The translations under genes and the position numbers were made by a program. 27,310 nt of DNA. Source: a virus (lineage: Duplodnaviria > Heunggongvirae > Uroviricota > Caudoviricetes). This document shows, piece after piece, positions 1 to 26,900 of the stretch. Numbering within the stretch: the first letter of the stretch is position 1; each line of letters starts with the position of its first letter. The stretch is from IMG/VR virus record IMGVR_UViG_2778261168_000001, one strand, 5' to 3'. The notes under the pieces are model-generated. The model saw nothing but the letters and a program-made list of their open reading frames with translations, did no database searches and was not told where the DNA came from.

Positions 1-457
1 TCTGCTGAACATTATCTGCCAGCGTTTCAACCTGCTCTTTTATCAGAGCTGCCGCTTCAGCATGTTGCCCTGCCTGTTGCTCGCTTTTCGCTGCGGCCTC
101 GGCGCTCTGTTGTGCCTGCGCCACCAGTTCTTCGAACCGCTTAACAACATCCGGTTTCAGGTCGCCTTCATCGAGAGCGGTCAGGAAGTCGTTCAGCGTG
201 CCGGGCTTTGAATCATCGTATACAGCAATATCTCCAACACAATATTCATAATCATCTTTAATCCATTGCCTGAGATAAACACAGTATTTCCCGAGCTGTG
301 CCTCGAACGAATATTCCCCATTATTTCCGGTCACCACGTCGGCAACTGTGCGCATCACCACCTCTGAGGTGTTTACCCGGGATTTCAAAATTATGTGGCA
401 TCCGGACATGGGGATACCTGCGCCATCAATCAGCGCACCTGATATCACTACAGACAT
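1..457 (-). CDS. Side tail fibre protein, N-terminal part (lambda Stf-like); partial, continues beyond window start
   Basis: ATG at 457..455. My translation begins MSVVISGALIDGAGIPMSGCHIILKSRVNTSEVV...YDDSKPGTLNDFL, which parallels the lambda Stf N-terminus as I recall it (MAVKISGVLKDGTGKPVQNCTIQLKARRNSTTVV...YEDSQPGTLNDFL). Frame stays open to position 1. Confidence 0.6.
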   Translation of the reverse strand, partial: MSVVISGALIDGAGIPMSGCHIILKSRVNTSEVVMRTVADVVTGNNGEYSFEAQLGKYCVYLRQWIKDDYEYCVGDIAVYDDSKPGTLNDFLTALDEGDLKPDVVKRFEELVAQAQQSAEAAAKSEQQAGQHAEAAALIKEQVETLADNVQQ

Positions 458-480
458 AGTTTTTCTCGCGATAAATTAAA

Positions 481-1011
481 TCAGGAAGAGGCTTCCGGAG
501 AGACAGGCCATTCAATGGCGTTATATGAGGTTTTATCAGTGACGGTGCTGAAATCCATTGCCTGCAGCGATTTCGCGTAAATGCGCCAGGCTGCCAGCTT
601 TTCTATTTCTTTATCACTGATGATTCCCAGAAGTAAATCCGTCTTCTTATCGGATATTTCCCGTTCGGCAGTCGCAGTGAGACGTGCTCGTTCCGACTCA
701 GCCAGCAGTCTGTAATCAACAGGGACTGGCAGTACTTCACCGTCTTTATAATACCAGCGGGCTTCAATACAAAAGCCTTCCGGTAGTTCATCCACTTCCA
801 CAATGGTAAAACCAACGGGATAAAGGCGGGATACATCTTCCGCCATGGAATAAATAACGCCGGTTTCAGGATGTGTGCACAGCTTGTATTTCTTCGTGAA
901 TTTATCCAGTGATTCATAAAAATCCTGGCCGTCTTCACTACGGAAATACTGAATGCCTTCACCATAAGGCATATCTTCAGGGTAGTAACGCGTAACGTTT
1001 ACGAGTTCCAT
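481..1011 (-). CDS. Tail fibre assembly protein (Tfa-like chaperone)
   Basis: 176 aa; ATG at 1011 with AAGGA RBS. C-terminal segment (...EIEKLAAWRIYAKSLQAMDFSTVTDKTSYNAIEWPVSPE) resembles the lambda Tfa C-terminus as recalled (...[27 protein letters not shown]). Lies directly downstream of a fibre gene. Confidence 0.75.
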   Translation of the reverse strand: MELVNVTRYYPEDMPYGEGIQYFRSEDGQDFYESLDKFTKKYKLCTHPETGVIYSMAEDVSRLYPVGFTIVEVDELPEGFCIEARWYYKDGEVLPVPVDYRLLAESERARLTATAEREISDKKTDLLLGIISDKEIEKLAAWRIYAKSLQAMDFSTVTDKTSYNAIEWPVSPEASS

Positions 1012-1024
1012 TATTTTTCCTTAA

Positions 1025-2407
1025 TTAACCTGATACTGAGCGCCATGCGCCATTTATATAAATCTGAGCCTGTTTGTAATACACTCCACCGATATTGTCC
1101 GCAGAGTTACTACCGGTCTCCTGCACATTAATCCCAGAAAGAGTGCAACCTGACGGCGCCCGAAAAACCCAGGAAACCTGATTACCGGCTGGTTTGTGAA
1201 ACACCTCACTGGTGTACTGAAAATTCTGCACGCCGCCTGTTTTGGTCTGGTAGCGTTCATCGAAATTGCCATAATCAGTTGGTGTTACCCGCCCTGAAAC
1301 ATCCACTGCACGGTTACTTTGTAACGCGCCATTCTGAAAACGGAATACGTGCTGTCCATTCGCATAAACATCCAGAATGCCGTCACCATTCTGTTTAAAG
1401 CCTGTATCGTTATCCCCGATCGCTATTGAGTTTCCACCCAGCGTGTTCTGAACGCCGATACCAAGTGCACCATTGACCTGAGAACCGCCACCAACAGACA
1501 CTTTATGCGACATGGATATTTCACCCGTCCGCAGATTAATAGTGAACGGGCGAAGTGGACCAATATCGCCATTTTCACCCTGGTTTTCCTGTGTTGGAAT
1601 AAGGTGCAGGCACTCTTCCGAACGACGAAAAATCAGGCCAAAGGCTTCGTTGAAAATCCTCAGCGCATTAACACCACGGATTTTCAGTTCCCCGGTCATC
1701 AAATCACCAGATTTTTTTACATATCGCAGATCAAAATCTGAATAGATATTGCCGGGGTTTATCACGCTGAAATAGCTTTTCTCGCTATCAAGAATGCAAA
1801 TCAAAGGAATACCCTTAATGATATCATTCGCTACCAGCTCGGACTTGTTCCCCTTATAAAGTGGGAACGTACCAAGAACCTTTCCGCCTAGTGTTAGTTG
1901 AAGTGTCGCCGCGTTGGTATTGTTTTGAACGGGGAAAACGATAATCGGGGTTCGTAGCGTCCAATCTGTACCCTCATTAACAAAAAACGTCGAGGGAAGT
2001 TCCAGCGTCAGTGTGTTTGCAGTGCCACCAGAAACACCCGCAATATAATGACCGCTCTGAAGCTGCGCTATCTGTACGAAATAATTTTCCGAACCACGCG
2101 TGGCAAAGTTAGCCACAACGTCATTAAGGGACCAACCTTTCGCGGTTGTTCCTTCCTGCCCACGAATGACTTTCAACACATCACCGCTTACCGATACCAA
2201 GTGACAAATCTCAAATGCAGACTCTTTATTATCGGTAAGCGTAATTTTTGCATAGACGCGTTGCCCGTTCGATTTATTTTCAAAATCGGCAGAAAGCAAT
2301 TTTGCAAATTTAGCCCCTGTACCGGGCATTACCGGAATATCAGTCTGAATCGTGGTGATATCACCAGCCAGTGCTGAAACAACGTTATTGCCGAACCCAA
2401 GAATCAT
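1025..2407 (-). CDS. Tail fibre protein
   Basis: 460 aa. ATG at 2407 overlaps the upstream stop (ATGA). Assigned by position between the gpI-like gene and Tfa, and by Gly/Ser/Thr/Asn-rich composition; family not independently verified. Confidence 0.55.
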   Translation of the reverse strand: MILGFGNNVVSALAGDITTIQTDIPVMPGTGAKFAKLLSADFENKSNGQRVYAKITLTDNKESAFEICHLVSVSGDVLKVIRGQEGTTAKGWSLNDVVANFATRGSENYFVQIAQLQSGHYIAGVSGGTANTLTLELPSTFFVNEGTDWTLRTPIIVFPVQNNTNAATLQLTLGGKVLGTFPLYKGNKSELVANDIIKGIPLICILDSEKSYFSVINPGNIYSDFDLRYVKKSGDLMTGELKIRGVNALRIFNEAFGLIFRRSEECLHLIPTQENQGENGDIGPLRPFTINLRTGEISMSHKVSVGGGSQVNGALGIGVQNTLGGNSIAIGDNDTGFKQNGDGILDVYANGQHVFRFQNGALQSNRAVDVSGRVTPTDYGNFDERYQTKTGGVQNFQYTSEVFHKPAGNQVSWVFRAPSGCTLSGINVQETGSNSADNIGGVYYKQAQIYINGAWRSVSG

Positions 2408-3030
2408 TTTTGAATCACCGTTGTTGCATAAGAATAAATAAAAGGGAGTTTTACATATTTCTGGTCAATGGCATCTTTCAGAAAATAGCCTATACCATCA
2501 CCATATTCTGGTATATGAATAGAAAAAACACTGTCCGATACAGTCACGCTCACATCAAAAGTGTGCTGCAACGGCGGGTCTATTCCGTTTTTTCCATGAA
2601 TGAACCGCGCCACACGGCGCTTTAACCAGTCAATGCAGAAATGCGAACCGTCAGCCTTATAAAAATTCCACGTTAATATTCGTTTGAAATAATCATCAGG
2701 GACATACGATGCCTGCCCCGGAACGTAATTCCGCATTGCTGCGTACGGGATCGTATTGTATTCAATGGTATCGTATGCACCGCGCGCAATAGCCTCCTCT
2801 GAAACCTGTAGTAAAGGTCTTTCAACACCGTAAATACCAAGTGCTATCCAGTCCAGCAACTGCCCGGTTATTGATTCCGATGTCCAGCATGGCAATGCCA
2901 GATTGTTGAGCGAATCGAGGTATTCCTGAGCAATTTCATTGTATGCTTCAAAGAACGCAACAACATTCGGATCATCTCTATACTGCACAAACGGATAAGC
3001 AGGAAGTATTTTCTCAGTCAGATATTGCAT
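2404..3030 (-). CDS. Baseplate/tail protein, P2 gpI / Mu gp48 / YmfQ-like by position
   Basis: Track ORF 2404..3138 begins with TTG. First plausible ATG is at 3030 (MQYLTEKILPAYPF...), overlapping the J-like gene end by 17 nt; an ATG at 3087 is an alternative. Position between J-like and fibre matches P2/Mu/e14 order. Confidence 0.5.
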   Translation of the reverse strand: MQYLTEKILPAYPFVQYRDDPNVVAFFEAYNEIAQEYLDSLNNLALPCWTSESITGQLLDWIALGIYGVERPLLQVSEEAIARGAYDTIEYNTIPYAAMRNYVPGQASYVPDDYFKRILTWNFYKADGSHFCIDWLKRRVARFIHGKNGIDPPLQHTFDVSVTVSDSVFSIHIPEYGDGIGYFLKDAIDQKYVKLPFIYSYATTVIQK

Positions 3031-4240
3031 ACTTATTGACCTGAACCTGTGATGCCACCGTCGAAAAATAGGAATAGGTATCGCCATAAACCAGGCTTGT
3101 GTCTTTTGCCGGAAGAACAATATGGCCGTTAATACCAATGCTCACACTGATTGTTGAGATCAACGTCGCATCAACCAGCAATTTTACGGAGCTGGTAAAA
3201 ATATCCTGGATTCGCAGCAGATTTATCGGGTGACCGACTTCAATAGAATTGATGTAATCAGCAACGTTTTGCTGCACAGCCATAGCAATACCCGCCGGAT
3301 CAACATAATCATCAGACACCGTGTTCCAGGTGATTAGCACCATGACGTTTTGTGATGACGGGATAACGAACGGCACCTGATAAACGTCCGGCGAAACGGT
3401 TATTGAAACCGTGCGTTTTTCCACTGCCGCACCGGATGGATTGCTTACATCGTTGGTCAGTTTCGAAATATCCGGTACAGATTTGTAAATCGCATAAGCC
3501 ACATCATACGGATCACCGCCACCAACAACCGCAACCCATTTCCCCAGCGACGACTGCCGGAAAGAAATCAGGTTTTCTCGCACACCGCTTACTGATTTGA
3601 GCATAGCTTTAAAGCAATCCGGTGTTCCCTGCACACCAAACATGCCGGACTCCATGACTTCGGCGCGGTAAGATGCCCACGTTTGCGCCTCCTGACCGGG
3701 CATTCCTGCGGTAAGGTTGGTGCATTTTACAGGCTGGTCTTTGGGTACTGAGGTAATGACCTGCGTCACGGTCCCTTCCGGTACAGCCCATGAGCCTGAC
3801 GTTGTGGCCACACAGTAGACTGGCTCAGTCTGCCCGTTTTCCGGTACCACGGTATCGCGGGAAACCGCATACTGGTAGTTGCCGTCACCGACAACAAATC
3901 CTTTAGGGATACCAAACCCCGGCAACGCCTCAAACACCACGTATACCGCCGTATTTGTACTTAATCCCTTCTGTGCTCCATATATGTTTCCGAGTTGCAT
4001 CAGTAACGGAATATTCGCGCCGTATGGGCTTACGGAGTTAATAAGGTCCACCCGCGCCTGGTCTATTAATGCCAGCGCCCCGACAGCCGTGCTGGCAAGG
4101 TCTGTAATAAGCCCCGCCGGAAGGTTGGCTGTATATCCAGGTACTTTTTCAGCAACTCTGGTGATAAGATTCGCGAGCAAATCATTGGGTGGCGTAGGCT
4201 GCGCACCCGCACTGGTCATAGTAATTGGTATTTCTGACAT
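3014..4240 (-). CDS. Baseplate J-like protein (P2 gpJ / Mu gp47 family)
   Basis: 408 aa; ATG at 4240 with GGAG RBS 5 nt upstream. Size and position upstream of the gpI-like and fibre genes. Confidence 0.65.
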   Translation of the reverse strand: MSEIPITMTSAGAQPTPPNDLLANLITRVAEKVPGYTANLPAGLITDLASTAVGALALIDQARVDLINSVSPYGANIPLLMQLGNIYGAQKGLSTNTAVYVVFEALPGFGIPKGFVVGDGNYQYAVSRDTVVPENGQTEPVYCVATTSGSWAVPEGTVTQVITSVPKDQPVKCTNLTAGMPGQEAQTWASYRAEVMESGMFGVQGTPDCFKAMLKSVSGVRENLISFRQSSLGKWVAVVGGGDPYDVAYAIYKSVPDISKLTNDVSNPSGAAVEKRTVSITVSPDVYQVPFVIPSSQNVMVLITWNTVSDDYVDPAGIAMAVQQNVADYINSIEVGHPINLLRIQDIFTSSVKLLVDATLISTISVSIGINGHIVLPAKDTSLVYGDTYSYFSTVASQVQVNKYAISD

Positions 4241-4280: not shown

Positions 4281-5441
4281 TTATTCAACCTCTTCTAAAC
4301 TGCTCACTCTGGACCCTCGGCGGAAATTATCATCATTTTTAACATACTCGTATGAATCCAGAATCAAACCAGATATGCGAAGTATATCTTCCGGATTAGT
4401 TATATGTATCCTTTTACCATCCGTATCAAGTCGAGCTCGTCTTATTTCATTCAACTGAACTTCACTAAGCGAAATAGGTAAAGTTATAAATGAAGATTTT
4501 TTATCATAAAATCTTAACAGCCATCTATTAGTTTTACCATTCAATAGTACACCGAAATATGACTCAGTATCTTTATATTCTATATTATCTTCTGTTTGTA
4601 TGATTTGTTTTACCCTTTCAAATAGCTCCAATTCTTTGGCTGTGGTTATTATGTTGGGGTTTTCTTCATCAACAATGGCGTTATTAACTTGTGTATCCGT
4701 TGCATCATTTTCTTTAGTTTGCTCTACCGGTTGTGTAGATAGCCCGGAAACCACCATTGCGCTAACAGCGCGCTCAACGGCCTGTTTAACTAATGGAGTC
4801 ACGAACTCAAGAAATCTCTGATTAAGTTGTCTCTCAATATTTGAACGACTAGCAACATATCGAACAAACTCCAGATCAACTTCACGAAGACTAGAACTGA
4901 TTGTTTTAGTAAATGAATTCAAATAAACACTTTCTTCAGCCAGTGTCCGTAAAGCCTCTGGTTTGAATTTATCATAACGAAAACGAAATAATTGTGTAAT
5001 ATCGGAGTGAGTTAGAGAATCCATTCTTAATTTTAAAAACGGCGTTGAATCCATTATGTTTTTTTGTTTCAAATCCGTAAAAAAACGCCATTCAACACCA
5101 TTTGTAATGGCTGATATAGTAACTTCCGGTGTTGAATTAAAATATCTTGATAGCTGTGGGCAGTGATTATCAATTTGTTCTGAAAACGATTTCGCCTCAA
5201 TGAACATCACAGGAACATCATGACAAAATAAAGCGTAATCAACCCGTTCATTAGCCTTAACCCCGGGGAAGTCAGCACTATACTCAGCTTTGACTTTTCT
5301 TGGATCATACGGAGTAAAACCAAGAATATCTAGTAATGGCATAATGAGTGCTTGTTTTGTCGTTTCTTCAGTTGTACAAAACACCCCCATTTTTGCAACA
5401 TGCTCTGTGTGTATTTTTAACTTATTTGCAAAATTTTCCAT
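4281..5441 (-). CDS. Moron-encoded protein with N-terminal HsdR-N-like PD-(D/E)xK nuclease domain and a C-terminal domain of unknown function; candidate phage-exclusion protein
   Basis: Track ORF 4281..5456 (391 aa). ATG at 5441 (MENFANKL...) has a GGAGGAG RBS; the ATG at 5456 has none. N-terminus shows TEETTKQALIMPLLDILGF...ERVDYALF...PVMFIEAKSF...ITNGVEWRFF, the motif set of the type I restriction R-subunit N-terminal nuclease domain (compare EcoKI HsdR ...ADYVLF...VVEAK as recalled). Gene is conspicuously AT-rich by eye relative to flanking tail genes. Confidence 0.55.
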   Translation of the reverse strand: MENFANKLKIHTEHVAKMGVFCTTEETTKQALIMPLLDILGFTPYDPRKVKAEYSADFPGVKANERVDYALFCHDVPVMFIEAKSFSEQIDNHCPQLSRYFNSTPEVTISAITNGVEWRFFTDLKQKNIMDSTPFLKLRMDSLTHSDITQLFRFRYDKFKPEALRTLAEESVYLNSFTKTISSSLREVDLEFVRYVASRSNIERQLNQRFLEFVTPLVKQAVERAVSAMVVSGLSTQPVEQTKENDATDTQVNNAIVDEENPNIITTAKELELFERVKQIIQTEDNIEYKDTESYFGVLLNGKTNRWLLRFYDKKSSFITLPISLSEVQLNEIRRARLDTDGKRIHITNPEDILRISGLILDSYEYVKNDDNFRRGSRVSSLEEVE

Positions 5442-5469
5442 GCTTGTCTCCTCCATGGTTACAATCTGT

Positions 5470-6188: not shown

Positions 6189-6902
6189 TTAACCCGGATT
6201 TGGTTGCTTCGACGTGATCGTGCTGCCGCCGCTTTGAACGCCAGTCACATCGTGGCTGTGGCCGCTGGCGCTCACGCCGTTGATAATTGCATCCTTCTCG
6301 ACCTTAAGAGGACCAATCAGCGAAGCGGTTGTATCCTTCATCTGTGCTTCGTCTTGGACGATTGGACCGTTCAGGTGAATTTTCCCGTTCAGGAAAATAT
6401 CTTCAGCCTCGAGGTAAACAGCTTTCGACTTTTGCCTGATTTCTTCCGGAGCCACCGTTACCGAGCTACTGCCGTCCTCTGTTTTGAGGATCGCGCCATC
6501 CGGACCGTACAAAACGATTTTTTGCGGATCTTCGTCGGACCAGTCCTTGTTTGCCAGTGGCACGAAAAACAGTGGAGTGAGCGACATCGAGTAAGAGAGC
6601 GTCGCCATACCGGTTCCCAATCCGGACACTCCGCGCAGTGATACATCAGCGGCAATTGTTACTCCTCGATCGCCCGGCTGTATCGGGTAACGAATATACG
6701 GGAATGTGGCGACAGGGATTGTTATCTGCGGAAAGTTGATCCCCTCCGGCAGCATATCAAACTGAACTGTCACTATCTGCCCGCTGACATCGACAACATG
6801 GCAGGGCAATTCACGGCCTTTAAGCTCGGCTTGCTGGTTACCAGAACTGGTCATCATCTCTGACAGCGTTCGGAGAAACGGTATTTTTTGAGCGTTTGAC
6901 AT
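6189..6902 (-). CDS. Baseplate central spike protein (P2 gpV / Mu gp45-like)
   Basis: 237 aa; ATG at 6902 overlaps the upstream stop (TAATG). C-terminal Gly/Ser-rich tip contains an HSH motif (..SGHSHDVTGVQSGG..), as in iron-binding spike apex domains. Position after the hub-like gene. Confidence 0.5.
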   Translation of the reverse strand: MSNAQKIPFLRTLSEMMTSSGNQQAELKGRELPCHVVDVSGQIVTVQFDMLPEGINFPQITIPVATFPYIRYPIQPGDRGVTIAADVSLRGVSGLGTGMATLSYSMSLTPLFFVPLANKDWSDEDPQKIVLYGPDGAILKTEDGSSSVTVAPEEIRQKSKAVYLEAEDIFLNGKIHLNGPIVQDEAQMKDTTASLIGPLKVEKDAIINGVSASGHSHDVTGVQSGGSTITSKQPNPG

Positions 6903-23330: not shown

Positions 23331-23582
23331 TTAATCCTGATTTTTATCCACCCTGAGTAGTTCGCGCAGGGCAAAGGCATCCCCTTTTCTGGCAAGCTTA
23401 AACAATGCCGCTCGTAGCTCGGCTTCACCTTTCGCTCTGCCCTTACGGATGGACGCATAAAAATTTGTCATTGCTTCCCGATTTTCTTTCAGTCGGTTCA
23501 GATCAACATCCAGAACGTCAGCGATTTGTTGTGCAGTCATCCGGCACGCTGCCAGAGACTCGACTTTCGAATACGGAATCAT
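23331..23582 (-). CDS. Small HTH DNA-binding protein upstream of the packaging genes
   Basis: 83 aa; ATG at 23582 with GGGGGTGA RBS; stop is 3 nt before the next start. MTAQQIADVLDVDLNRLKEN is HTH-like. Confidence 0.4.
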   Translation of the reverse strand: MIPYSKVESLAACRMTAQQIADVLDVDLNRLKENREAMTNFYASIRKGRAKGEAELRAALFKLARKGDAFALRELLRVDKNQD

Positions 23583-24450
23583 TTGTCACCCCCATTGATA
23601 TGCAGGGTGTCTTCTTCCTGTATTTTTCGTGAATGATTTTTACTGCAGCGTTGTTCCAGGTGACCTGATGGTGAATGCGTTTATGGCTGGCGCCCATCAG
23701 GGATATTTTTACGCACGACGGCGCATACATGACGGAGTAAAAACTTTTAACGTAGGTTCCGGAATCCAGATACAGTTCGGTCATTCCGCCGCTGTTTTTC
23801 TGCGTCTGTTTCTGCCCTAACTGGACAGCACCAATCGTCATAAACAACTCACCACGGCGACCGAGATTCGTGTACGTATTCACATCCTCGTTAATGCGCC
23901 CCATGAATGAGAACGGTCGATCAACCGAACAGATAAAGCTGTTCATTGCCTTGCGTTTCACCCACGAAGCATGGCCGCCATTGTCACCAAGAAAATCCCC
24001 GCCCTGCGACATAGCGATGGAAAGAGCAGGTATTGATTCGTAGTACGCCAGCATTTCAGAAAGGATCGCATCCAGTTTCCTTATCGGAAAATAGGCCTGG
24101 TCATAGTTGCGATCCACCCGAAACTGGAACTCGTGATAATCATCATCGAGCTGAATGAAGTATTTACACCCGACCAGTTTTGCCAGGTCGAAACAGGCAT
24201 TACGGGCGTAAAAAATTGAGCGGCGGTCACAGAAATTATCGGCTTCGTCAAAACGACTGGCGATATCGGCTTTGGAAAACACCAGCACCTGTTCACCAAA
24301 TTCAGCCATGTATTGATGCCGTGTCTTATCTTCATCATCAACAACGATAAAAATTTTCCCGGTATAGCCAGCACGACGCAACGTCCGGTAAGTCAGAACT
24401 TTGTCCGGTCGCCCGTGAGTCAGAATAAAGGCGCAAAAATCATCACGCAT
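23518..24450 (-). CDS. Soluble GT-A-fold (family 2-like) nucleotide-sugar transferase-like protein
   Basis: Track start 24471; the ATG at 24450 (MRDDFCAF..) has a very strong GAGGAGGAGG RBS. N-terminus FILTHGRPDKVL...GKIFIVVDDED and a later FIQLDDDYHEF (DxD-type) motif match the GT-A N-terminal signature. No obvious transmembrane segments. Confidence 0.45.
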   Translation of the reverse strand: MRDDFCAFILTHGRPDKVLTYRTLRRAGYTGKIFIVVDDEDKTRHQYMAEFGEQVLVFSKADIASRFDEADNFCDRRSIFYARNACFDLAKLVGCKYFIQLDDDYHEFQFRVDRNYDQAYFPIRKLDAILSEMLAYYESIPALSIAMSQGGDFLGDNGGHASWVKRKAMNSFICSVDRPFSFMGRINEDVNTYTNLGRRGELFMTIGAVQLGQKQTQKNSGGMTELYLDSGTYVKSFYSVMYAPSCVKISLMGASHKRIHHQVTWNNAAVKIIHEKYRKKTPCISMGVTNDSVFESRVSGSVPDDCTTNR

Positions 24451-25234
24451 ATTCCTCCTCCTCACCACCATGCATGATCTCCACCATGCGCTGCGTCATC
24501 CGGACAAATCCATTTTCAATAGCCTGCTGATAATCAATGATCACCAGCGCCGACTCCTCGAAAAAACACTGAATTTCAGCGGGGGCGTGAGCGTAATAGT
24601 CCGCAATTCTGCTGAAATTAAACACCGTGTGACGTTCTGCCGCACACAAGAGGAACTTCTCAATATCAGGCTCAAGGGACGCCGAACGTATCCGGCTGAT
24701 CAACTCCTGAGTTTTCGTATCGTCGTACAGTTCACTGATATCTGGTTTATCGCCCGACGGCTCATAAACAGGCGTATCAATTTTCGTCGTGTACGGCTCC
24801 TCCTCATTTCCTGTACCGGGCAAAACATCCGTCAACAGTTCATCAATTTCTGTCGGGATGAAGCCTGTCAGGGAGACATCAAAATCAGCATTGATTAGGT
24901 CCGACAGCTCCATCCGCAACAGATCTTCATCCCAGCCAGCATTCATCGGCAGGCGATTATCTGCCAGGCGGTACGCCTTTTTCTGCTCATCCGTCAGGCC
25001 AGACAGAACAATGACCGGAACAGAATCCATTTTGAGCATTTCAGCCGCCATAACACGACCGTGACCCGCAATAATTTCGCCCTTTTCGTCAATCAGCACC
25101 GGATTAGTCCAGCCGAATTGCTTAATACTTTCTACCAGTTGTGCCACCTGCTCAGTACTGTGCGTCCTGGCGTTGTGCGCATACGGTGACAATTCTTGTA
25201 ATGGGCGATAGACTATCTTTAATTTCTCGCTCAT
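24443..25234 (-). CDS. ParB-like nuclease domain protein
   Basis: 263 aa; ATG at 25234. N-terminus YRPLQELSPYAHNARTHSTEQVAQLVESIKQFGWTNPVLIDEKGEIIAGHGR contains the ParB/sulfiredoxin-fold GxxR box (AGHGR). Overlaps the next gene start, so the two are co-operonic. Confidence 0.65.
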   Translation of the reverse strand: MSEKLKIVYRPLQELSPYAHNARTHSTEQVAQLVESIKQFGWTNPVLIDEKGEIIAGHGRVMAAEMLKMDSVPVIVLSGLTDEQKKAYRLADNRLPMNAGWDEDLLRMELSDLINADFDVSLTGFIPTEIDELLTDVLPGTGNEEEPYTTKIDTPVYEPSGDKPDISELYDDTKTQELISRIRSASLEPDIEKFLLCAAERHTVFNFSRIADYYAHAPAEIQCFFEESALVIIDYQQAIENGFVRMTQRMVEIMHGGEEEEYA

Positions 25235-25371: not shown

Positions 25372-26829
25372 TTAGGAGCGCCAAAAAAAACCTGAAAACA
25401 ATATAATAACAGGATAAATTTCAAGGCGACCAAGAATCATAGCTATGCACATTAAACATTTTGCAATGTCATTAAGCACTCCGAATGACGATGCAGTAGC
25501 CCCAAAACCTAATCCCATATTATTAATACATGCAGCCACTGTTGCAAATGATGTAAGAAAATCATATCCCATACCATTTAACACCAGTATAAAAAACACC
25601 GTGAAGAGAGTATAAAGAAAAAAGAAACTCCATACAGACCTCATTACACGATCTGTAACTATCTTCCCTCCTACATTTACACTCAACAACGCTCTGGGAT
25701 GAGAAAGCTGATTTATCTCGTGTTTGCTTTGTTTGAAAAGTATAAGAAATCGAAGTGACTTAATTCCACCACAAGTTGAACCTATACATCCCCCAAAGAA
25801 ACTTGACAACAGCAAAAACACTATCGTGTGCGTGGGCCAACTTGCATAATCCTGCGTAGCTAAACCATTATCAGTGAGCATGGAGCTGGCAAGAAAAAAC
25901 GAATGAATAAAACTTCCATGCAAGTCATACATACCTATATGCCAGACCTGGAAAGAGGTAACAATGATCACCCCTAAGGCTATTAACAGAAAGAAACGAA
26001 GTTCAATATCTCTGATTAAAGGTTTTATCGTTTTCCTGCTAATAACAATATACCAAAGAGTGAAGTTGAAAGCCGATAGCAGGGAAAAAGAACCAGCCAC
26101 CAGCTCAACCAAATAGTTATTAAAATATCCGATACTCTCGCTATGAGTTGAGAAACCACCAAGCGAAACTGTGGAAATCCCGTGACAAATAGCATCAAAC
26201 AAAGGCATTCCTGCAAGTCTATAACAGACAATACAAGCAATACCTAATAAAGAATAAGTTATCCACAGTGTCCGTGACGTATCGGCCAGGCGGGGAGTGA
26301 GTTTGTCATCCTTAAATGGCCCCGGCATTTCTGACTGATAAAGCTTTGCACCACCAATACCCAATAATGGCAATACAGCAACCGCCAGAACAATAACTCC
26401 TAAACCACCTATAAAATTTAACTGTGACCGATAGTACAAATATGCCCGAGGTAATGAACTAACATCATCAATTACAGTTGCTCCTGTTGTTGTTATTCCA
26501 GAAACCCCTTCAAACAGAGCATCAATGAACGTTAAATTAAGTTCTGAGTCAATCCATAAAGGGAATGCACTAATAACAGAAAACAAAATCCAAAACATTA
26601 CAATTATAATAAACCCATCACGGGTACGTAATTGAATGCCAGATTTCTTAGTTGTATACCACGCTCCGCCACCAATGCAAAAAAATATAACGAAAGTTAT
26701 AAAGAAAACGAACAGGCTTTTTTCTTTATAAAACAATGCTACAACCATTGGTGGCAACATTGAAAGACTATAGAGCCAAACCAGGAACCCACACATATGA
26801 GTAACAACTCTTACATGAGATGTATTCAT
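25372..26829 (-). CDS. trkG: TrkG/TrkH-family potassium uptake transporter (prophage cargo)
   Basis: 485 aa from ATG at 26829 (MNTSHVRVV..); the track's 491-aa version starts at TTG 26847, which has an AAGGTGG SD. Multiple membrane helices with the reiterated glycine-containing pore motifs of TrkH/KtrB (FCIGGGAWY, TTGATV, NFIGGLGV, STVSLGGFS, GGCIGSTCGG, INNMGLGFGAT). Gene is visibly AT-rich. Rz/Rz1-trkG is the Rac prophage arrangement as I recall it. Confidence 0.85.
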   Translation of the reverse strand: MNTSHVRVVTHMCGFLVWLYSLSMLPPMVVALFYKEKSLFVFFITFVIFFCIGGGAWYTTKKSGIQLRTRDGFIIIVMFWILFSVISAFPLWIDSELNLTFIDALFEGVSGITTTGATVIDDVSSLPRAYLYYRSQLNFIGGLGVIVLAVAVLPLLGIGGAKLYQSEMPGPFKDDKLTPRLADTSRTLWITYSLLGIACIVCYRLAGMPLFDAICHGISTVSLGGFSTHSESIGYFNNYLVELVAGSFSLLSAFNFTLWYIVISRKTIKPLIRDIELRFFLLIALGVIIVTSFQVWHIGMYDLHGSFIHSFFLASSMLTDNGLATQDYASWPTHTIVFLLLSSFFGGCIGSTCGGIKSLRFLILFKQSKHEINQLSHPRALLSVNVGGKIVTDRVMRSVWSFFFLYTLFTVFFILVLNGMGYDFLTSFATVAACINNMGLGFGATASSFGVLNDIAKCLMCIAMILGRLEIYPVIILFSGFFWRS

Positions 26830-26846
26830 ATCTAAATATTCTTTCA

Positions 26847-26900
26847 ATTATAACCACCTTGCTGCAATATTATGATTATACTGTATAAAATTTAACTCCT
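26847..26900 (-). promoter_or_regulatory. AT-rich upstream region of trkG with two perfect TATAAT hexamers (candidate promoter)
   Basis: Minus-strand TATAAT at 26880..26875 and 26852..26847; no convincing -35 found. Confidence 0.25.

Follow-up and report, generated by a model that had tools for sequence, protein, structure and literature searches.

Introduction

The N-terminal domain of the second fibre described here has solved homologues in two phages. In Ur-lambda, the gpV/gpM junction is encircled by a collar of 12 subunits made up of Stf residues 1-94 (PMC12617516). In the Vibrio myophage XM1, gp40 starts with the same N-terminal domain, continues into a coiled coil, and binds the neck proteins gp4 and gp5 (PMC10457771). 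The proteins of the DUF4376 family, on the other hand, have been characterized experimentally as fibre chaperones in the Alteromonas phages V22 and A5 (PMC7289586, PMC10579305). The V22 homologue is required for a functional fibre (PMC7289586), whereas the A5 chaperone is dispensable and has been proposed to be a transient cap (PMC10579305).

A four-gene end composed of a fibre, a Tfa, an Stf-type fibre and a DUF4376 protein is found in Rac-SA53, pPE4, and the Stx2e phage phiP27, and our literature search returned no virion-level study of Rac-SA53, of pPE4, or of the PF08400 domain on contractile-tail phages. Here, we analyze a stretch of 27,310 nt (hereafter the window) from a virus of the Caudoviricetes, recorded in IMG/VR as IMGVR_UViG_2778261168_000001, in which the same arrangement begins. 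An initial sequence-only reading had noticed that a Tfa gene precedes a second, lambda Stf-like fibre gene at the edge of the window, and had offered a mosaic joint, a remnant of a fibre-switching region, and a phage with two receptor-binding fibres as possible meanings. Our analysis indicates that the locus probably encodes two independent fibre systems, with the second fibre (Stf2) carried on the virion, putatively docked at the neck, and with no switching by inversion.

Results

Gene content of the fibre region

The features of the region are given below; the last two lie outside the window and are numbered on the public contig L006.

3014..4240, minus strand: J/gp47-like baseplate wedge protein, 408 aa (PF04865, E 9.6e-8; phrog_6 baseplate wedge, E 4.7e-38)
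2404..3030, minus strand: I-like baseplate protein, 208 aa (phrog_8212, E 7e-119)
1025..2407, minus strand: fibre 1, 460 aa (phrog_25419 over aa 1-254; phrog_6859 "tail fiber" over aa 226-459, E 3e-117)
481..1011, minus strand: Tfa tail-fibre assembly chaperone for fibre 1, 176 aa (PF02413 Caudo_TAP, E 1.1e-20; phrog_136, E 1e-52)
1..457, minus strand: Stf2, lambda-Stf-type second fibre, first 152 codons, cut at the window edge (PF08400, E 2.6e-58)
L006 13360-13935: predicted DUF4376 fibre-chaperone gene, 191 aa (PF14301, E 1.1e-16)
L006 14184-14209: Rac-type attR core, 249 nt past the last gene and followed by uspF

The minus-strand J/I-like genes, the 460-aa fibre and Tfa are all present as originally read, with Pfam and PHROGs scores far beyond chance. 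In E. coli relatives, the J-like gene is annotated as "baseplate J/gp47 family". The I-like gene overlaps the end of the J-like gene with its start and the start of fibre 1 with its stop, and its position between J and the fibre is conserved across all Rac-SA53-type loci. The phage encodes a contractile tail, including a sheath (phrog_205), a baseplate hub (phrog_196), and a spike resembling phi92 gp138. The latter was the sole match when 14 concatenated head, neck and tail proteins were compared with PDB sequences using phmmer, and no sequence match to XM1 gp4 or gp5 was detected among the neck proteins of this phage. Candidate neck-protein ORFs of the window lie at 15198-15683, 14758-15198 and 14321-14776.

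Fibre 1 can be divided into two parts. The N-terminal part of about 230 aa is peculiar to this tail backbone and presumed to serve as the baseplate adaptor, and the C-terminal part of about 230 aa is an exchangeable shaft and tip, in which aa 319-354 match the distal subunit of the S16 long tail fibre and aa 404-460 the short tail fibre of phiTE (E 8.6e-15), both from the PDB. Tfa starts 13 nt past the fibre 1 stop and has the two hallmarks of the Tfa/Mu U/P2 G proteins, namely the PF02413 domain and a gene immediately 3' of the cognate fibre.

Stf2 and its continuation beyond the window

The Stf2 gene starts 23 nt past the Tfa stop. The portion inside the window encodes a transthyretin-like collar domain (aa 1 to about 95), which a short linker joins to the first part of a long coiled coil. 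Its N-terminus is 41% identical to those of both lambda Stf and K-12 StfR, which together with the PF08400 match bears out the resemblance proposed for this gene at the outset.

The continuation past position 1 was read from contig L006, a record other than the window's own that is 100% identical to the window across 12,407 nt. In L006, Stf2 is an intact ORF of 469 aa (11951-13360) and not a truncated remnant. The full protein consists of the N-terminal collar domain, a coiled coil of about 130 aa, and a divergent C-terminal domain of about 240 aa that we take to be the putative receptor-binding part. The start of the next gene overlaps the Stf2 stop at position 13360. Judged by its PF14301 domain and its location directly 3' of a fibre gene, the product is predicted to be a DUF4376-family chaperone, distant from the Alteromonas homologues; it shows no similarity to lambda Tfa or TfaR. 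The flanking uspF/ompN sequence in L006 is 98.5% identical to that of K-12. As to whether Stf is followed by its own Tfa and an invertase, a chaperone gene is present, of the DUF4376 family instead of Tfa, and L006 contains no Pin/Gin homologue.

Compared with lambda-Stf-type systems, the locus shares the PF08400 collar domain, the coiled-coil shaft and, as seen in L006, a complete ORF. It departs from them downstream, where a cognate Tfa (PF02413) is replaced by the DUF4376 gene, and in the tail itself, which has a sheath, baseplate hub, J-type wedge and spike and lacks lambda J/lom, in place of a non-contractile lambda-like tail.

Fold of the Stf2 collar domain

Against lambda Stf residues 1-94 (PDB 9e7m), the Stf2 N-domain gave an E value of 2.7e-17 as a single sequence and 6.5e-40 with a 12-sequence profile. 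An AlphaFold2 model of the N-terminal part (pLDDT 82.8) comprises six strands followed by a helix at aa 102-151. The best Foldseek matches of this model were lambda Stf (E 3.8e-7, TM 0.82) and XM1 gp40 (E 6.3e-7, TM 0.62), with the next match at E 2e-3; a weaker structural similarity was seen to, among others, tail-tip chains of the siphovirus Bxb1 and the neck fibre of cyanophage A-1(L), which has a contractile tail. XM1 gp40 is thus the second-best PDB match of the domain by fold and also by profile (E 8.7e-4, N-terminus aligned to N-terminus); by both measures its neck-binding N-terminal domain, which leads into a trimeric coiled coil, is homologous to the N-domain of Stf2. An initial phmmer match to gp40 (E 9.5e-8) was discarded since its alignment ran into the Ala/Gln/Glu-rich coiled coil. 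With the N-domain alone, the single-sequence comparison gave E 0.1, and in view of these values together the relationship is retained as a remote one. In a large-database search for Stf2 homologues, nearly all matches were partial proteins at contig ends.

Distribution and mosaicism

Related loci were taken from 80 viral contigs that encode a closely similar Stf N-domain. The Stf2 module was found on backbones of Rac-SA53 type (41 contigs), P2 order (15) and phiP27 type (11), with the remainder being of a second P2-related order (7), lambda-like (2) or unassigned (4); the collar subtype of the window resides on a contractile-tail backbone in 74 of the 76 backbone-assigned contigs. Three backbones with no detectable similarity among their neck and tail proteins carry collar-domain alleles that are at least 97% identical. 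In 45 of 49 assessable loci Stf2 is intact with the chaperone gene abutting, its length ranges from 422 to 1047 aa, and its C-termini have diverged to about 30% identity between variants; in one related genome the gene is a pseudogene. A survey of complete E. coli genomes revealed the Tfa-Stf junction in 113 of 5,426. The domain is present in 307 records of isolated phages, and in 303 of these the variant is less than 60% identical to that of the window; the records listed were of lambdoid or other non-contractile-tail phages. The two-fibre layout is ordinary, being common to many prophages and already contained in the deposited genomes of phiP27 and Rac-SA53.

Comparison with phiP27 shows that the region is mosaic. 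What the two phages have in common is limited to fibre 1 aa 230-459, Tfa, Stf2 and the DUF4376 protein, with no other protein matching at E<1e-3, and the alignments place the exchange boundary with respect to phiP27 inside fibre 1, at about aa 230. Window positions 1223-1699, in the fibre 1 shaft, are 91% identical in DNA to both phiP27 and a P2-like prophage. The P2-order prophages with the module have the same attR arm and uspF flank as the present locus; in these prophages, the module follows gene D and not Tfa, and the adjacency of Tfa and Stf is therefore positional. The Tfa-then-Stf order is a by-product of Stf2-DUF4376 being the last module before attR. Of the proposed mosaic joint, the mosaicism stands, with its boundary moved into fibre 1, while the order of the two genes carries no functional meaning.

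Search for an invertible segment

A tblastn search with PinR gave no serine invertase match at E<0.08 for the window and L006, and none at 1e-5 for the 80 related loci. The extended locus has no gix/hix-like site at up to 3 mismatches and no inverted fibre copy, its only inverted repeat being 20 nt with 80% complementarity, and all of its genes are on one strand. The components of an invertible segment, that is, an invertase, inverted crossover sites and an opposed alternative fibre C-terminus with Tfa, are thus missing. The remark that neither an invertase nor an inverted copy is visible in the window proved correct and extends to the sequence beyond it, but the suggested remnant of a fibre-switching region finds no counterpart in this locus.

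Discussion

The region is best read as the last part of the late operon, which holds the tail genes, of an intact temperate phage of the Rac type. This phage has a contractile tail, is related to Rac-SA53, and as a prophage occupies the ttcA/uspF site of E. coli. In the first fibre system, the backbone-specific N-terminal half of fibre 1 would plug into the J/I-type baseplate, and the exchangeable C-terminal shaft and tip would be folded by the Tfa encoded just downstream. The second system would consist of the accessory Stf2 (469 aa) and its DUF4376 chaperone, encoded last before attR. Both systems would belong to one transcription unit with the tail genes; no promoter-like site was found between the genes, which are separated by spacers of 13 and 23 nt and overlap at the other junctions. 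Because of this shared transcription unit, two receptor-binding specificities would be displayed on one virion at once. The early notion of a phage with two fibre systems is strengthened by finding Stf2 complete, with a chaperone gene of its own, in the identical contig.

How might Stf2 be held on such a virion? The collar domains would ring an exposed ring junction of the tail, and on a sheathed tail the likeliest site would be the neck, at the terminator/connector junction, as for XM1 gp40. By analogy with that fibre, we infer that Stf2 would sit at the neck of the contractile tail. Counting against a specific docking site are the near-identical collar alleles on dissimilar backbones, which are hard to reconcile with one protein partner. 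The reading is further weakened by the remoteness of the gp40 relationship, by the reliance on L006 for the sequence past position 1, by the pseudogene in one related genome, and by the predominance, in isolated phages, of domain variants less than 60% identical to the window's.

A different placement would keep Stf2 on the virion and put it at the baseplate or on a branch from fibre 1, away from the neck. Branched receptor-binding complexes of this sort are known in phages G7C, CBA120 and DT57C. In about 60 of the 80 loci the module immediately follows fibre 1 and Tfa, the fibre 1 shaft segment at 1223-1699 is conserved at 91% across three backbones, and a partner transferred together with the module would account for identical collar alleles on unrelated backbones. 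Nevertheless, we consider this arrangement unlikely. Ten of the 80 loci keep Stf2 without that fibre 1 segment (their fibre 1 ends are of the lambda-Stf/Tfa type, or they are lambda-like phages), and 6 kb separate Stf2 from the H and G genes in the P2-order prophages; docking on fibre 1 was rejected as the main model on these two grounds. Moreover, both solved close homologues ring the tail axis and not another fibre (PMC12617516, PMC10457771).

Two further explanations would remove Stf2 from the virion or turn the region into a relic. Stf2-DUF4376 could be a lambdoid leftover beside attP/int, inherited from a siphovirus ancestor of Rac, that is expressed and not assembled. The equivalent place of StfR in K-12 Rac, beside attR and accompanied by lambda-like tail remnants, would fit such an origin, as would the predominance of siphoviruses among isolated phages with the domain and the attR arm and uspF flank shared by P2-order prophages, which suggest that the module is linked to the integration module. 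We nonetheless judge it very improbable: most assessable loci retain the intact ORF and the abutting chaperone gene, the C-terminal domains are diversified and shuffled like those of active receptor-binding proteins, the phiP27 module is at a different att site, and most occurrences of the collar subtype are on contractile-tail backbones. Still less credible, and close to negligible, is a decayed invertible segment such as Mu G, e14 P or Rac pin. The signs in its favour are indirect: K-12 Rac carries pinR after stfR-tfaR, and in Mu and P1 members of the families that include the fibre 1 C-terminus and Tfa undergo switching. Opposed to this are the absence of an invertase homologue from the window, its extension and the related loci, the lack of crossover-like sites and of any inverted repeat of fibre sequence, and the fact that two complete fibre genes run on the same strand up to an attR only 249 nt past the last gene.

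Within the preferred reading of two independent fibre systems, it is conceivable, although we hold it with reserve, that Stf2-DUF4376 is a portable module that clips on to any exposed ring junction through a collar ring of variable subunit number and requires no backbone-specific adaptor. On siphoviruses this junction would then be that of tube and tip, and on contractile tails it would be the neck. If true, this would explain near-identical collar alleles on Rac-SA53-type, phiP27-type, P2-related and lambda-like virions, and a second receptor specificity could be gained in one recombination step. Such generic docking, if true, would also make the domain a ready-made handle through which engineered phages or tailocins could be given another receptor specificity, and would help explain the host-range mosaicism of toxin-carrying prophages (Stx2e, LT-II). 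For the window alone the result is of little import; what it describes is a Rac-type prophage whose dual-fibre end is normal and intact. The wider point is that a collar fibre of the lambda Stf type is common on contractile-tail E. coli prophages, with near-identical docking domains on unrelated backbones.

Comparison with known systems

Fibre and Tfa following J/I-type baseplate genes are shared with P2 H-G, Mu S-U and the e14/Rac cassettes, and Tfa, a PF02413 protein, is 25-41% identical to Mu U; the invertase, inverted alternative fibre C-terminus and crossover sites of the invertible cassettes in this group are absent here. In K-12 Rac, stfR-tfaR is followed by pinR. Downstream of Stf2, the resemblance is to Alteromonas V22 (gp27) and A5 (gp9), where a PF14301 chaperone gene likewise lies directly downstream of a fibre, although the relationship is distant.

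Lambda Stf, as known from Ur-lambda, shares with Stf2 the PF08400 collar domain (41-45% identity), the subsequent linker and coiled coil, a gene at the far end of the late operon, and a chaperone gene just downstream. The similarity does not extend beyond about aa 130, the chaperone is Tfa in lambda and DUF4376 here, and the tail of the present phage is contractile and without the J/lom context. The ring in lambda is located at the tube/tail-tip junction; in this phage, the sheath and baseplate would cover that site. XM1 gp40 belongs to a contractile-tail phage and has the same succession of a transthyretin/Ig-like N-domain of about 100 aa, a trimeric coiled coil and a receptor-binding part; its identity to Stf2 is only 26%, and its C-terminus is tailspike-like whereas that of Stf2 is not.

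The order of fibre, Tfa, Stf-type fibre, DUF4376 protein and attR is the same in Rac-SA53 (tail1-tail4) and phiP27 (L54-L57). phiP27 differs in its att site and in having a head, a neck and a Mu-like baseplate that are unrelated; identity to phiP27 amounts to 74% for the fibre 1 C-terminal half, 41% for Tfa, 78% for the DUF4376 protein, and 59% for Stf2 overall, rising to about 90% in the collar domain. Stf2 is 469 aa long here, as opposed to 490 aa in phiP27 and 1061 aa in Rac-SA53, and its C-terminal domain of about 240 aa is only about 30% identical to the Rac-SA53/pPE4-type C-termini. With Rac-SA53, in contrast, the phage has the whole tail backbone in common (about 89-92% DNA identity), as well as the same ttcA/uspF site.

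Tail-end genes and their continuation past position 1

Positions 1-4240 of the window hold five genes, all on the minus strand:

3014-4240, minus strand: J/gp47-like baseplate wedge protein, 408 aa (PF04865, phrog_6)
2404-3030, minus strand: I-like protein, 208 aa (Pfam/PHROGs)
1025-2407, minus strand: fibre 1, 460 aa (phrog_25419 over aa 1-254; tail-fibre family phrog_6859 over aa 226-459)
481-1011, minus strand: Tfa, 176 aa (PF02413, E 1.1e-20)
from 457, minus strand: Stf-like ORF (Stf2), 152 codons, running off the window edge (PF08400 'Prophage tail fibre N-terminal', E 2.6e-58)

Pfam and PHROGs agree for each ORF, which confirms the two fibre genes and the Tfa gene where the sequence-only reading had placed them. 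The J-like gene overlaps the I-like gene, whose stop overlaps the fibre 1 start; spacers of 13 nt and 23 nt separate fibre 1 from Tfa and Tfa from Stf2, respectively. The Stf2 N-terminus is 41% identical to lambda Stf and likewise to K-12 StfR, with no similarity to either past about aa 130. Since a tail sheath (phrog_205), a baseplate hub (phrog_196) and a central spike like phi92 gp138 lie upstream, the tail is contractile. The spike, a 237-aa protein (6189-6902, minus strand), matches phi92 gp138 in its C-terminal part (E 0.003) and was the only match when 14 head, neck and tail proteins were searched by sequence against solved structures; no further solved relative of this contractile tail family seems to be detectable by sequence.

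The locus was extended by querying public assemblies with the exact fibre 1 protein, which returned 20 contigs. Contig L006 matches the window at 100% identity over 12,407 nt and reaches position 1, and two further contigs are 100% identical over about 3.5 kb. In L006 the Stf2 gene is uninterrupted and encodes 469 aa, so that the interruption expected of a non-functional remnant is absent; the window edge is probably an assembly break in this gene. The Stf2 stop is overlapped by the start of a 191-aa gene (PF14301/DUF4376, E 1.1e-16), and DUF4376 proteins of Alteromonas phages are fibre chaperones with experimental support (PMC7289586, PMC10579305). The 26-nt Rac att core, as annotated in Escherichia phage Rac-SA53, lies 249 nt past the DUF4376 gene, the second fibre and its chaperone being the last genes before attR. 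Beyond it follow uspF, ompN and nifJ, 98.5% identical to E. coli K-12. The TrkH-family K+ transporter of the window (25372-26847, minus strand) is 100% identical to K-12 Rac TrkG, a marker of Rac-type prophages. Taken together, the att core, the uspF flank and this TrkG show the prophage to be intact, of Rac type and located at the ttcA/uspF site.

Assemblies often break within the Stf2 gene: several of the contigs whose fibre 1 is identical run out in Tfa or Stf2, and almost every Stf2 homologue in the databases is a partial protein at a contig end, in some cases misnamed 'shikimate transporter'.

Fibre switching and mosaic joints

The position of Tfa ahead of a Stf-type gene had been taken to suggest a mosaic joint or the remnant of a fibre-switching region. 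Neither an invertase nor an inverted copy had been seen in the window, and the same holds for the extended locus (window plus L006), in which no Pin/Gin homologue, no gix/hix-like site (up to three mismatches allowed) and no inverted fibre segment was found; an invertase within 10 kb occurs in 0 of 80 related loci. The switching remnant is thereby refuted.

The mosaic joint is partly supported. The fibre 1 shaft DNA (window 1223-1699) is about 91% identical to both Stx2e phage phiP27 and a P2-like prophage, and identity to both falls over the fibre 1 tip and the 5' part of Tfa. Against phiP27 it recovers at the Tfa 3' end and is about 86% across the 23-nt spacer and on into the Stf2 collar domain and coiled coil. 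In the P2-like prophage the 6-kb distance between the two genes splits the match into separate segments, the 3' end of Tfa at about 78% and the 5' region of Stf2 at about 74%. The Tfa 3' end, spacer and Stf 5' end are conserved as one block in several backbones, and such a block could act as a recombination linker. Among 5,426 complete E. coli genomes, 113 have the Tfa-Stf junction. In some E. coli genomes (H92, H93) a DUF4376 gene directly follows the Tfa 3' end, which suggests a deletion of Stf2 or a different joint.

The Stf2 module across backbones

A scan of viral contigs for N-domains closely related to that of Stf2 gave 80 loci, which were classed by reference proteins.

Backbones of the 80 loci carrying close relatives of the Stf2 N-domain
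Rac-SA53-type backbone: 41 loci
True P2 gene order: 15 loci
phiP27-type backbone: 11 loci
Second P2-related order: 7 loci
Lambda-like siphovirus: 2 loci
Unknown backbone: 4 loci

In P2-order prophages the module of Stf2 and DUF4376 genes takes the place that ogr has in P2, immediately behind gene D, and lies 6 kb from H and G (contig L076, 8888-13147, and 14 similar loci). The module of L076 is flanked by a Rac-type attR arm and uspF as in the window's prophage (94% identity), suggesting that P2-like virion modules were joined to a Rac-type integration module. An IMG/VR lambda-like prophage (L057, 7049-10765) has an intact Ur-lambda-type Stf (776 aa) with Tfa and, 41 nt after this pair, a second Stf-type gene with an N-domain 74% identical to the window's; it therefore has two Stf-type genes in one phage, and its siphovirus tail would bear two different collar-type side fibres. 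Its position after gene D or after stf-tfa marks the module as a unit placed last in the late operon, and Tfa adjoins it only where fibre 1 and Tfa happen to end the tail genes.

Collar alleles with at least 97% identity occur on both the Rac-SA53-type and the phiP27-type backbone, and also in two loci assigned to a P2-related backbone. Of the 49 assessable loci, 45 have an intact Stf2 with a chaperone gene abutting it; the length of Stf2 ranges from 422 to 1047 aa with diverged C-termini, and the window's C-terminal variant has a 96% identical copy on a P2-order prophage. An active receptor-binding module open to exchange would be expected to look like this, and a relic would not. The N-terminal ~230 aa of fibre 1 co-vary with baseplate type, while backbones exchange the C-terminal half and Tfa; fibres of P2 H or Mu S type with a PF02413 chaperone usually have this adaptor-plus-tip design. 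The intact Stf2 with its DUF4376 gene and this survey pattern support the earlier suggestion of two receptor-binding fibres, and the locus quite likely encodes two functional, non-switching fibre systems.

Possible docking of Stf2 on a contractile tail

The question raised by this locus is where a lambda-Stf-type collar fibre is seated on a contractile tail, the same collar occurring on several unrelated tails. In Ur-lambda, a 12-subunit collar of Stf residues 1-94 surrounds the gpV/gpM junction at the tail tip (PMC12617516). In Vibrio phage XM1, whose tail is contractile, the gp40 N-domain binds neck proteins gp4 and gp5 in 18 copies; within gp40 it is followed by a coiled coil and then the receptor-binding part (PMC10457771). 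The Stf2 docking domain strongly resembles lambda Stf (profile E 6.5e-40, TM 0.82), and its likeness to XM1 gp40 is remote but specific: E 0.1 with the single-sequence N-domain only, E 8.7e-4 with a 12-sequence N-domain profile, N-terminus aligned to N-terminus, and E 6.3e-7 with Foldseek on an AlphaFold2 model (pLDDT 82.8), the next match being generic transthyretin-like (E 2e-3). Foldseek also gave weaker matches, among them the neck fibre of A-1(L), a cyanophage with a contractile tail, and chains from the tail tip of siphovirus Bxb1.

The tube/tip junction of a sheathed tail is presumably covered, and for this reason we place the Stf2 collar at the neck, a position to which we give only slightly better than an even chance. 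Near-identical collar domains occur on backbones whose proteins of neck, tube and baseplate have no detectable sequence similarity, which a specific docking interface does not readily explain. If Stf2 docked on fibre 1, such sharing would be accounted for, but the conserved fibre 1 segment is absent in 10 of the 80 loci, which still keep Stf2. A generic ring held mainly by collar-collar contacts could likewise explain the same collar on dissimilar tails; such a ring can close with 12 (lambda) or 18 (XM1) subunits. Among isolated phages, 307 records have the domain; in 303 of them it falls below 60% identity to the window's variant, and among the records listed the carriers are lambdoid or other non-contractile-tail phages. 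A literature search found no virion-level study of contractile-tail phages with a Stf-type collar fibre.

Cargo genes elsewhere in the window

A variable cargo slot amid the baseplate genes, which holds Ant, Rha, YafO toxin or LprI-family genes in relatives, here encodes a 391-aa protein (4281-5456, minus strand; phrog_4225 'endonuclease'; no PADLOC match) with an HSDR_N domain, the N-terminal domain of type I restriction R subunits. Two genes at 23518-25234 (minus strand), just upstream of the small terminase gene, encode a 317-aa TET-associated glycosyltransferase (PF20691, E 4e-36) and, next to it, a 263-aa ParB_N-domain protein partially matching a PADLOC type II methyltransferase model; the two may be DNA-modification cargo.

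Comparison with known systems

The order fibre, Tfa, Stf-type fibre, DUF4376 gene, attR also occurs in Rac-SA53, in the record of 'Actinobacillus phage vB_Apl-pPE4' (L004, PP818812.1) and in phiP27. Rac-SA53 has the same backbone and integration site as the window's prophage. The vB_Apl-pPE4 record is about 94% identical to it over the tail region, and its Actinobacillus host label looks doubtful. With phiP27, nothing is shared at E<1e-3 outside the fibre 1 C-terminal half (74%), Tfa (41%), Stf2 (59% overall, about 90% in the first 100 aa) and the DUF4376 protein (78%). K-12 Rac differs: it carries lambda-like tail remnants (ynaA, lomR, stfR, tfaR, pinR) where the window's prophage has its contractile-tail module, and its pinR, after stfR-tfaR, belongs to that different tail end. 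The locus is thus the intact two-fibre end of a Rac-SA53-like prophage, real, correctly located and ordinary; its layout is common among E. coli and known from genomes already deposited.
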